Under the pieces are notes generated by a model. The model was given only the letters and a program-made list of their open reading frames with translations. It was not told where the DNA came from and did not search any database. Made by a program: the position numbers and the translations under genes. From assembly GCF_057098645.1 (NCBI RefSeq), contig NZ_CM169472.1: a DNA stretch of 64,000 nt; one strand, written 5' to 3'. Positions 17,943 through 21,538 of this stretch are shown in pieces. Each line of letters starts with the position of its first letter. The stretch's first letter is position 1.

Positions 17943-18322
<380 letters not shown>

Positions 18323-18416
18323 GTTTCTGAACAACTCACCTTGCTGAGCAGAAAAATGCGATTTAACCAAAAAGCCTGCTGTACACTTAAGAAACAAGAA
18401 GGTGTAAGGAGGCGTT

Positions 18417-18950
18417 ATGAAAACGCGTATTCATGTTGTGCAGGGTGATATTACCAAACTGGCCGTTGATGTGATTGTGAATGCGGCTAATCCGTCATTA
18501 ATGGGAGGCGGCGGCGTCGATGGGGCCATTCATCGCGCAGCGGGTCCGGCCCTGCTGGATGCCTGTTTAAAAGTCAGGCAACAGCAGGGCGATTGCCCTA
18601 CGGGGCATGCCGTTATTACGCTTGCAGGCGATCTTCCCGCTAAAGCCGTAGTGCACACCGTCGGGCCAGTCTGGCGTGGTGGTGAACAAAACGAAGACCA
18701 GCTTTTGCAGGATGCCTATCTCAATAGCCTACGACTGGTGGCGGCAAACAGCTATACGTCAGTGGCTTTTACTGCAATCAGTACTGGGGTTTATGGTTAC
18801 CCTCGTGCGGCAGCGGCTGAAATCGCAGTAAAAACCGTTTCAGAATTTATTACCCGTCACGCTTTACCCGAACAGGTATACTTTGTCTGTTATGATGAAG
18901 AAAACGCCCACCTCTACGAAAGACTCCTTACCCAACAAGGAGATGAATGA
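18417..18950 (+). CDS. ymdB: Macro-domain protein YmdB (O-acetyl-ADP-ribose deacetylase)
   Basis: 177 aa; macro-domain motifs [23 protein letters not shown]. Confidence 0.93.
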
Positions 18951-20373
18951 TTTGCCCCGGCTGGCGAGCGCGGTGCTGCCACTGTGTTCGCAACATCCCG
19001 GTCAGTGTGGTCTTTTCCCTCTGGAGAAAAGTCTGGATGCGTTTGCCGCCCGGTATCGTCTGGCCGAAATGGCAGAGCATACACTGGATGTTCAGTATTA
19101 CATCTGGCAGGACGATATGTCGGGTCGGTTACTGTTTTCCGCCCTGTTAGCCGCAGCAAAGCGTGGCGTTCGCGTCCGTTTGTTGCTGGACGACAACAAT
19201 ACACCCGGACTTGACGACATTTTACGCTTGCTTGACAGTCATCCCCGCATTGAAGTCCGGCTTTTTAATCCTTTCTCGTTTCGCTTGCTACGTCCGCTTG
19301 GTTATATCACCGACTTTTCCCGTCTCAATCGCCGTATGCACAATAAAAGTTTCACTGTCGATGGCGTGGTGACTCTGGTAGGGGGGCGAAATATTGGTGA
19401 TGCCTATTTTGGAGCAGGGGAGGAGCCACTTTTTTCGGATTTAGATGTCATGGCAATAGGACCAGTTGTAGAGGACGTTGCCGATGATTTCGCCCGCTAC
19501 TGGTATTGTAAATCGGTTTCACCCTTACAGCAGGTGCTGGATGTCCCGGAAGGTGAAATGGCGGATCGCATCGAGTTACCCGCCTCCTGGCATGACGATG
19601 CCATGACGCATCGTTATTTACGCAAAATGGAATCCAGCCCGTTTATAAATCATCTGGTTGATGGAACGTTGCCGCTTATCTGGGCGAAAACACGTTTATT
19701 AAGTGATGATCCGGCGAAAGGGGAGGGCAAGGCAAAACGGCATTCACTGTTACCGCAGCGCCTGTTCGATATCATGGGCTCACCCAGTGAACGCATCGAT
19801 ATTATCTCTTCCTATTTTGTACCGACACGCGCAGGTGTGGCGCAACTCTTACGGATGGTGAGAAAAGGGGTAAAGATTGCGATCCTAACCAATTCTCTTG
19901 CCGCTAACGATGTTGCTGTCGTCCATGCCGGATACGCGCGCTGGCGAAAAAAATTGCTCCGCTACGGCGTGGAATTATATGAACTCAAGCCGACGCGTGA
20001 ACAAAGTAGTACGTTACACGATCGCGGCATAACCGGTAATTCCGGTGCCAGCCTGCATGCTAAAACCTTTAGCATCGATGGTAAAACGGTGTTTATCGGC
20101 TCTTTCAATTTCGATCCACGTTCGACATTGCTCAATACTGAAATGGGCTTCGTGATAGAGAGCGAAACGCTGGCACAGTTAATTGATAAACGCTTTATTC
20201 AGAGCCAGTATGATGCGGCCTGGCAGCTCCGTCTGGACAGGTGGGGGCGGATCAACTGGGTTGATCGTCATGCAAAGAAAGAGATTGTTCTCAAAAAAGA
20301 ACCCGCCACCAGTTTCTGGAAGCGGGTTATGGTCAGACTGGCGTCGATATTGCCCGTGGAATGGTTATTGTAA
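18943..20373 (+). CDS. clsC: Cardiolipin synthase C (phospholipase D family)
   Basis: ATG 18943 (MNDLPRLAS) overlapping ymdB stop by 8 nt; two HxK motifs (RMHNKSF, LHAKTF). Confidence 0.88.
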
Positions 20374-20380
20374 ACGCGGC

Positions 20381-21538
20381 TTAACGGGCTGGTGCTTTAT
20401 CGTTCTCACGCTTAACAACCGGTTTACCAGAGAACAAAAACTTCAGTAACGGGATGCGCAAATGAATTTCATACAGAATTATCGCAATCCCTACTACGAA
20501 TATCAGGCCACAGAGAAAACCAAGCCAGTTGGAGGTGATGTGCGGTGTAATGTATGCGCCGAAAAACAGCGTTAACGGGTGGTGAACCAGATAGATAAAC
20601 AGCGATGCGTTAACAAAATAAGTCACCCGCGCTGACTGGAAGTTAAGCAAACGGTGGCCAAAGGAGAAGACCACATTCACCATCCACAGACCGAGGACCA
20701 TGGTGATCACCGACTCGGTTTCGTACATCCAGGCATCGCCACTGCCATAGCGCTGGTTGAGTAAATAAGCGACAAACGCCAATGCTGCTGCAAGGGTACA
20801 GCCACGAGACGGCGTGGTAAACAAGGCTTTAAGATGAGGGAAAATGAAAGCCAGTGCGCCGAGGATAAAGAACGGCAAATAAAATAGCGTTTGCATGACA
20901 ATAAAATTGAACATGCCGTTACTCAGAATGGGCGGATACACAATAAAAATCGTTCTTCTTATTACCGCATAGCCGATGCCGAGGCACAAAAAAATCACCG
21001 ATAGTTTTACCATCGAGAATTTTTTATTCGTTTTATCAGAATTTTCTAAATTATTTCTGATGCGTTTGAATATCCAGACGCACAGCGTCGTCATGACCAC
21101 TAACACCAATAAAAACCACAGGTGCGATATTAATTCCCAGGCTAACGTATTATATTTGTCATACAATGACAGCCCAGGCCAACTTTCCGCTTTCCCTTTG
21201 ACGTATTGCAGCATAATAAATTGCGGCAATGTCAGTAGGGGGATGGCTGTTAACATCGGGATCCCTACACGTTCGACACGTACTTTCCACCATTTTTTCA
21301 AGGGATAGCGTAAAAAAAGCATGTAGGAAAAGTACCCGGATATAACGAAAAATACCTGCATGCGGAACGAGTGGATGAAGTCATTAAAAAGGGTCAGCCA
21401 CAATGACGGTTCGGCGCTATTCACATGCCATGTATGGCTCGAATAGATTAAAGAAATATGAAAAGGGATCCCTAACAACATCAGCCAGGCGCGGATGGAG
21501 TCGAGGAAATATTCACGTTGCGCGGGTACTGGATTCAT
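20381..21538 (-). CDS. opgC: Osmoregulated periplasmic glucan succinyltransferase OpgC
   Basis: 385 aa polytopic membrane acyltransferase; recognised. Confidence 0.9.

Follow-up and report, generated by a model that had tools for sequence, protein, structure and literature searches.

Translation of clsC in the window, the whole stretch of 64,000 nucleotides analysed here, probably depends in cis on translation of the upstream gene ymdB, whichever start codon is used. Each of the candidate clsC starts has a poor Shine-Dalgarno (SD) sequence, poor spacing or poor accessibility, and a strong autonomous site is not apparent. The lack of a good autonomous ribosome-binding site (RBS) at any candidate, combined with zero initiation in vitro, points to this cis dependence. 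Regarding the start itself, we infer that E. coli uses a conserved ATG pair at 18892/18895, inside ymdB, as a genuine and probably the principal clsC start, an assignment that we hold tentatively and regard as almost evenly balanced against its negation. Dual starts are common, and the candidate clsC starts are thus not mutually exclusive.

The two genes and the candidate clsC starts

The ymdB coding sequence (18417-18950, plus strand) begins with ATG, comprises 177 codons and ends with TGA at 18948-18950. Its SD sequence TAAGGAGG (18405-18412, plus strand) is separated from the ATG by 4 nt and forms a duplex of -12.1 kcal/mol with the 3' end of 16S rRNA; this start was seen by both INRI-seq and in vivo Ribo-RET. 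Profile matches identify the 177-aa product as a macrodomain O-acetyl-ADP-ribose deacetylase. Residues 21-137 match Pfam PF01661 (Macro) with 150.6 bits, residues 1-177 match the NCBIfam equivalog NF001660 with 372.3 bits (cut-off 271), and N25 and D35 (GGGVDG) are both present. The YmdB of the window carries Thr at the position of Pro119, a residue invariant in 22 other sequences, and reads AFTAISTG versus FPAISTG.

The longest ATG-initiated frame of clsC (18892-20373, plus strand) ends with TAA at 20371-20373 and encodes a phospholipase D (PLD)-type cardiolipin synthase. Pfam PLDc_2 matches the protein in two stretches with 138.6 bits, and the two HKD motifs, HNKSFTVD and HAKTFSID, are encoded at 19339-19362 and 20056-20079 on the plus strand. 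With 99% tblastn identity to the MG1655 locus, it is the orthologue of E. coli K-12 ClsC (b1046), one of three E. coli cardiolipin synthases, whose activity is given in the literature as the formation of cardiolipin from PE and PG. The pairing of a macro-domain protein with a PLD-type cardiolipin synthase, as proposed in the first-pass annotation, is therefore borne out by the Pfam and NCBIfam profiles and the two HKD motifs. The region of the two genes shows 100% identity to E. coli O145 chromosomes and is found in 5423 of 5426 complete E. coli genomes, and the gene order csgC-ymdA-ymdB-clsC-opgC is the same as in MG1655.

The literature calls the ymdB-clsC pair an operon, and its expression is induced in stationary phase, on cold shock or at high osmolarity. 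A consensus scan of the plus strand from 18417 to 19100 found no promoter-like or terminator-like sites, which favours a single transcription unit; an internal clsC promoter within ymdB was rejected, as none was predicted.

Open from 18883, the clsC frame offers five in-frame start codons ahead of the conserved protein, namely TTG 18883, ATG 18892, ATG 18895, ATG 18943 and TTG 18952. The ATGATG at 18892-18897 (plus strand) is made from the ymdB codons Tyr159-Asp160-Glu161. Its two ATGs, at MG1655 1106295 and 1106298, precede the K-12 TTG by 60 and 57 nt (-60 and -57) and would give ClsC of 493 and 492 aa, overlapping ymdB by 59 and 56 nt, respectively. The ATG at 18943-18945 (plus strand) consists of bases 2-3 of the ymdB codon Asp176 (GAT) and base 1 of Glu177 (GAA); it corresponds to MG1655 1106346, and starting there, ClsC would have 476 aa. 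Since the YmdB C-terminal motif G-D-E yields this ATG automatically when Asp is encoded by GAT, its mere presence is not beyond chance. The TTG at 18952-18954 (plus strand), 1 nt past the ymdB stop, is the curated K-12 start and gives 473 aa.

Four ClsC N-termini thus coexist in public databases for one DNA sequence. From identical K-12 DNA, ClsC is recorded with 473 aa in at least 1000 contigs, with 493 aa in at least 1000, with 476 aa in 72 and with 492 aa in 25; the 493-aa form is larger than those of 476 or 473 aa by about 2 kDa. The curated MG1655 record ends ymdB at 1106353 and starts clsC with TTG at 1106355, leaving a gap of 1 nt, and no experimental basis was found behind this curated TTG start. 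PGAP places the start at ATG 18892 (59-nt overlap, 493 aa) in all seven records inspected, among them the O145 record and a K-12 derivative, and also in strain H1827/12. The first-pass annotation had let clsC begin at ATG 18943 and overlap ymdB by 8 nt. The sequence does contain this ATG in frame ahead of the TGA at 18948-18950, and the arithmetic of the overlap holds if translation starts there. As a start codon, however, it is used by neither the curated K-12 record (TTG 18952) nor RefSeq/PGAP (ATG 18892), and it has zero SD spacing and no signal in the published start-site maps. A downstream clsC start with an RBS of its own, which the same annotation had named as contrary to its claim, exists as a proposed annotation, the curated K-12 model of TTG 18952 placed 9 nt after AAGGAG.

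Initiation signals and published start-site maps

AAGGAG at 18937-18942 (plus strand) is the sole good SD-like sequence at the ymdB-clsC junction. It directly abuts ATG 18943 with 0 nt of spacing, and lies 4 nt from ATG 18947 and 9 nt from TTG 18952. The out-of-frame ATG 18947 has the best SD spacing and opens an ORF of 67 aa; it was rejected as a start, the INRI-seq signal being absent. The upstream pair at 18892/18895 has almost no SD (-3.8 kcal/mol at a spacing of 13 nt), and lies in A/U-rich surroundings followed by AAG AAA. The AAGGAG can pair with CUCCUU (18924-18929) within ymdB, forming a hairpin at 18924-18942 on the plus strand with 6 bp, a 7-nt loop and a stability of about -6 kcal/mol. 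As a conserved SD-masking element this hairpin was rejected, for it is found only in E. coli and the closest clade, and its z-scores of -0.56 and -1.41 are not significant.

Initiation at the junction was covered by INRI-seq, in which a synthetic transcript spans about -30 to +150 around the TTG and thus holds the hairpin, ATG 18943 and TTG 18952, with the -60 site lying outside. The annotated TTG gave 0 CPM in five of five replicates, with the transcript plentiful (316 CPM) and ymdB strong. Among alternative starts, none was called at -9 (ATG 18943), and the sole call for clsC, a CTG at +69 in a single replicate, stayed below threshold. The in vivo Ribo-RET signal at the annotated clsC start was also 0. 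The translational coupling proposed in the first-pass annotation thus keeps its plausibility as cis coupling, in that the junction transcript by itself did not initiate in vitro, but it is not tied to an 8-nt overlap.

Tetracycline profiling (TetRP) in E. coli K-12 (Nakahigashi et al. 2016) screened in-frame NTG codons less than 60 nt upstream of annotated starts, which includes the -9 position and excludes -60. The study lists ymdC among the genes with new starts and calls the ATG at -57, which is 18895 in the window. The signal was weak, with 0, 30.1 and 16.1 at -57 versus 0, 0 and 5.7 at the annotated TTG, and no call was made at -9 though it was screened. The -57 call was graded 'not conclusive' by Nakahigashi et al. 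2016, as the site lies inside the strongly translated ymdB. The TRAINSPOTTER N-terminomics supplements make no mention of clsC. Taken together, the -57 call, the zero INRI-seq signal at both the TTG and -9, and the use of ATG 18892 by PGAP favour the upstream pair, whereas the inconclusive grading of the TetRP call and the near-absent SD weaken it.

Sequence differences among E. coli genomes do not tell the clsC starts apart. The segment 18880-18969 is identical in 3392 of 5423 E. coli genomes, and the sampled variants miss all start codons. An allele survey with 45-mers centred on the mutated base recovered the control 18932C>T in 737 genomes. Silent changes able to abolish a start (18893T>C, 18896T>C, 18944T>C and 18952T>C) were absent from the E. 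coli genomes surveyed; absence at a single site is not significant. One genome of 5426, that of isolate H1827/12, has TTA in place of TTG 18952 with clsC otherwise intact.

Comparison across species and the rival starts

A comparison of 80 ClsC loci from species-representative genomes showed that ymdB directly adjoins clsC at 21 loci, all of them in Enterobacteriaceae. Most other ClsC orthologues, from Erwiniaceae and beta- and gamma-proteobacteria, have no adjacent ymdB, and in Mixta ymdB lies 83 nt upstream and clsC has a separate SD and ATG. The homologue of the 18892 start, (A/T)TG, is the only start common to all 21 ymdB-adjoining loci. Nine of these loci, from six genera (Leclercia, Pseudescherichia, Superficieibacter, Enterobacter, Atlantibacter and Kosakonia), contain no in-frame ATG, GTG or TTG within 15 nt of the ymdB stop. 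The only start they have in common is the ATG in the YmdB motif C-Y-D-E-E-N, the homologue of 18892, from which the frame is open, so that in these genera clsC has to start some 65 nt within ymdB. A non-canonical junction start at the nine loci was considered and rejected, since the stop-N is followed by ACG, ACA, ACC or TCC, a variable codon.

The third base of YmdB codon 159 is T in 23 of 23 ymdB sequences, either as the T of ATG or as that of TTG where Tyr is replaced by Phe, and codon 159 is among only two of 166 degenerate ymdB columns with an invariant wobble position. If the YmdB sequence is kept and its synonymous codons are randomised, an ATG at this position together with an open frame arises with a probability of about 0.18. 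In Phytobacter, the complete ymdB ends 181 nt before clsC, and a relic of the ymdB 3' end is still attached to clsC, collinear with Leclercia at 29 of 34 nt; the ATG is kept and encodes MTIKMP. The nine loci with no junction start, the invariant T and this relic all favour the pair at 18892/18895. Other observations weaken it. The wobble T also occurs in Mixta and in the full-length ymdB of Phytobacter, both without overlap, and the comparative support is strongest outside Escherichia. Synonymous-site conservation across the whole overlap was not significantly raised (p=0.10), and no purifying selection on the overprinted peptide was detected (p=0.10), the extension being poorly conserved. If the extension is translated, selection seems to fall on the start codon only.

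Junction starts are found in other members of the family. At all five Citrobacter loci an ATG occupies the position of the E. coli TTG, in the form TGA-T-ATG or, in C. werkmanii, ATGA. Stops in the upstream frame make the junction start the only one possible in C. werkmanii, so ClsC without the extension is viable, which further weakens the upstream pair as the principal start. In Dryocola, Cedecea and Buttiauxella, ymdB is shorter and the junction reads stop-N-GTG. A perfect AAGGAG accompanies TGA-T-TTG in E. coli; in E. albertii these sites read AAGGCG and TTA, but the ATG at -9 and the upstream ATGATG are retained. From these arrangements, the clsC start appears to have shifted from an ATG deep inside ymdB to the stop/start junction on more than one occasion, with both types kept in Escherichia.

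The main competitor of the upstream pair is the curated K-12 model, in which clsC is translated from TTG 18952 by coupled re-initiation at the stop-N-start, with AAGGAG 9 nt before it, to give 473 aa. The SD would be masked by the CUCCUU of ymdB and freed once a ribosome reaches the ymdB stop. We consider this a substantial possibility, though one clearly short of an even chance. The MG1655 annotation and the UniProt length agree on it, and the predicted SD duplex is -8.5 kcal/mol at a spacing of 8-9 nt. The recurrence of stop-N-start, with ATG in Citrobacter and GTG in Dryocola, Cedecea and Buttiauxella, is in keeping with it. The joint presence of AAGGAG and TTG in E. coli, both missing in E. 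albertii, looks like a functional unit and likewise weighs against the upstream pair. The SD-sequestering hairpin, which is present on the INRI-seq transcript, would explain the zero signal there; yet that hairpin is short and unconserved, its z-score is not significant, and the predicted cost of opening the site is 16.2 kcal/mol. TTG is moreover a weak start codon, it is replaced by TTA in E. albertii as well as in the one E. coli isolate, and its TetRP signal of 5.7 was obtained in only one of three samples.

The ATG at 18943 is the least supported start, and we consider it improbable. Here a ribosome ending at the UGA of 18948 would slip back 2 nt and re-initiate, producing the 8-nt overlap. 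The codon is in frame, is the only junction start shared by E. coli and E. albertii, and has a homologue, arising from G-D-D/E, at four of five Citrobacter loci. AUG is also stronger than UUG, and at termination only 2 nt would separate it from the codon in the P site. No E. coli genome surveyed has the silent T>C by which it would be lost, and 72 public contigs use it. Against this, the SD spacing is zero, neither TetRP, although it screened the site, nor INRI-seq records a start, and the homologue is absent beyond Escherichia and Citrobacter. It arises as a by-product of the GAT codon of Asp176, which makes its presence no sign of function, and it is unused by curated K-12 and RefSeq.

Cis dependence, YmdB protein and known systems

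With the principal start at 18892/18895, we propose the following arrangement. The two genes would form one transcription unit, with the whole clsC initiation region within the last 60 nt of ymdB. The start would lie 59/56 nt inside ymdB in another frame, so that the first ~20 residues of ClsC would be overprinted on the C-terminus of YmdB. Ribosomes translating ymdB would unfold the region, including the CUCCUU/AAGGAG hairpin, and bring ribosomal subunits to the clsC start. Re-initiation after termination at UGA 18948 may, in addition or instead, use ATG 18943 and above all TTG 18952 with its preceding AAGGAG.

This arrangement bears on the effect of ymdB on ClsC. The statement in the first-pass annotation that ClsC activity was reported to need YmdB co-expression agrees with the literature: according to papers citing Tan et al. 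2012, ClsC reaches its full activity or level only when ymdB is co-expressed. According to a 2021 review, clsC clones that include the neighbouring ymdB yield increased ClsC 'by an unknown mechanism', which is listed there as an open question. The higher ClsC from ymdB-carrying clones is most likely due to cis dependence and not to a requirement for YmdB protein; these clones, together with the title of Sawasato & Bogdanov 2024, favour cis dependence as the best explanation. In a stronger form, the 'ymdB requirement' of ClsC would be a cis effect of a mis-placed start. The 5' end of clsC in Enterobacteriaceae would overlie the final ~60 nt of ymdB and lack an RBS of its own, so that the 473-aa clones would be missing the native initiation region. 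The start would then have migrated at least two to three times, independently in Citrobacter (ATG), in Dryocola/Cedecea/Buttiauxella (GTG) and in Escherichia (ATG/TTG). This stronger form is possible, but we regard it as unlikely.

Alternatively, YmdB protein may act on ClsC in trans, either as a subunit or activator (a 'ClsC1-C2 complex') or through RNase III and mRNA stability, with the junction only ensuring co-expression. Papers citing Tan et al. 2012 do call YmdB required for the full activity of a ClsC-YmdB complex, and the adjacency of the two genes is kept in the 21 Enterobacteriaceae loci. On the other hand, the title of Sawasato & Bogdanov 2024 refers to ClsC substrate specificity without a need for the ymdB product, and the review speaks of 'increased levels of ClsC'. 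In addition, clsC mRNA changed only 1.1-fold on YmdB overexpression, most ClsC orthologues have no adjacent ymdB, and A. tumefaciens Cls1 (41% identical) works without YmdB. An action in trans therefore seems rather improbable to us.

If clsC starts inside ymdB and depends on it in cis, the boost of ClsC by ymdB reduces to a simple matter of where translation starts and how that start is annotated. Deleting ymdB cleanly would then also take away the clsC start, which bears on the design of clsC constructs and ymdB knock-outs.

The ymdB-clsC operon of Tan et al. 2012 consists of the same two adjacent genes, and ymdB is likewise reported to enhance ClsC. As far as the papers citing it convey, the effect was ascribed to YmdB or left open, and the position of the clsC start is not discussed in them. 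The genes, their adjacency and their functional link are already known, and the junction is an ordinary overlapping or abutting operon junction.

UGAUG/AUGA junctions of the trpE-trpD and trpB-trpA type in E. coli show termination-reinitiation coupling. They resemble the TGA-T-ATG/ATGA of Citrobacter and the TGA-T-TTG of E. coli in being same-strand junctions with the start a few nt from the stop. In contrast, the junction start of E. coli clsC would be a weak UUG or an AUG without SD spacing, and coupling here is a prediction. At atpH-atpA, the downstream initiation region is reportedly masked by mRNA structure and opened by upstream translation. Similarly, AAGGAG pairs with CUCCUU inside ymdB and the isolated transcript is silent in vitro, whereas the ymdB-clsC hairpin is a stem of just 6 bp that occurs in E. 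coli alone and does not stand out statistically. In dcm-vsr of E. coli, the start of the downstream gene is said to lie several codons within the upstream gene, in another frame, and to need upstream translation. The ymdB-clsC overlap would be longer (56-66 nt) and the dependence is one that we infer, but the likeness to dcm-vsr would extend to a start embedded in the upstream coding region, a poor independent RBS and cis dependence on the upstream gene.

Start codons of clsC and the ymdB-clsC junction

Comparison of the ymdB-clsC junctions of L014, L017, L019, L005-L008 and L046, loci fetched from species-representative genomes, revealed clade-specific clsC start codons. In Dryocola, Cedecea and Buttiauxella, clsC starts with GTG behind a ymdB cut to 174 aa; Citrobacter uses ATG where E. 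coli has TTG, and an ATGA is found at the junction of C. werkmanii. These differences suggest that the clsC start has moved repeatedly to a stop/start junction. The start is also annotated inconsistently, as public protein collections hold four ClsC lengths (473, 476, 492 and 493 aa) for the same K-12 DNA (window 18892-20373), with RefSeq PGAP giving 493 aa whereas the curated MG1655/UniProt entry gives 473 aa.

At the junction, a 6-bp hairpin (window 18924-18942) pairs CUCCUU with the Shine-Dalgarno-like AAGGAG. The CUCCUU, encoded by two rare Leu codons (CUC and CUU), is an exact mimic of the 16S anti-Shine-Dalgarno sequence, and the hairpin is restricted to E. coli and its closest clade. 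The best spacing from AAGGAG, 4 nt, belongs to the out-of-frame ATG at 18947, from which a third-frame ORF of 67 aa runs (window 18947-19150). No signal for this ATG was reported in INRI-seq, the published in vitro start-site map.

Variation of ymdB and the flanking genes

The sole difference of the O145 YmdB from that of K-12 is found at codon 119 (window 18771-18773), which is ACT (Thr) instead of Pro. The residue sits in the macrodomain motif AF-P-AISTG, and Pro at this position is invariant in the 22 other aligned sequences. The enzyme YmdB may be affected by Thr119.

In Phytobacter massiliensis (L018, 2317-2495), clsC lies 181 nt after the end of a complete ymdB and is still fused to a relic of about 35 nt of a ymdB 3' end that contains the conserved ATG, the homologue of window 18892. 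This relic suggests that ymdB was replaced or inserted in this species, with the old 5' end of clsC being kept.

Downstream, the clsC stop codon (20371-20373) is separated by only 7 nt from the end of the convergent opgC/mdoC ORF at 20381. The 3' end of opgC holds a small hairpin (window 20377-20391). This convergence (window 20371-20391) shows no obvious bidirectional terminator. The gene ymdA (window 18011-18322) is variously named 'protein YmdA', 'YmdA family protein' and 'type 1 fimbrial protein' among PGAP records. In INRI-seq, its annotated ATG gave no start, and an out-of-frame alternative start was detected at +122.

The N-terminus of distant ClsC homologues

Distant ClsC homologues from beta- and gamma-proteobacteria and Oligoflexus (L043-L049, L057, L070 and L078) carry N-terminal signal peptides, some 150 nt before the match. 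Most of these contain a lipobox (LTGC, LGGC, LILGC or LIAC), and the signal peptide is followed by a conserved LP-x-L-E/D-x-R motif. In contrast, ClsC of Enterobacterales is without a signal peptide. Judged from these sequences, the difference implies that location or topology has changed within the ClsC family, which touches the question of the orientation of the ClsC active site.
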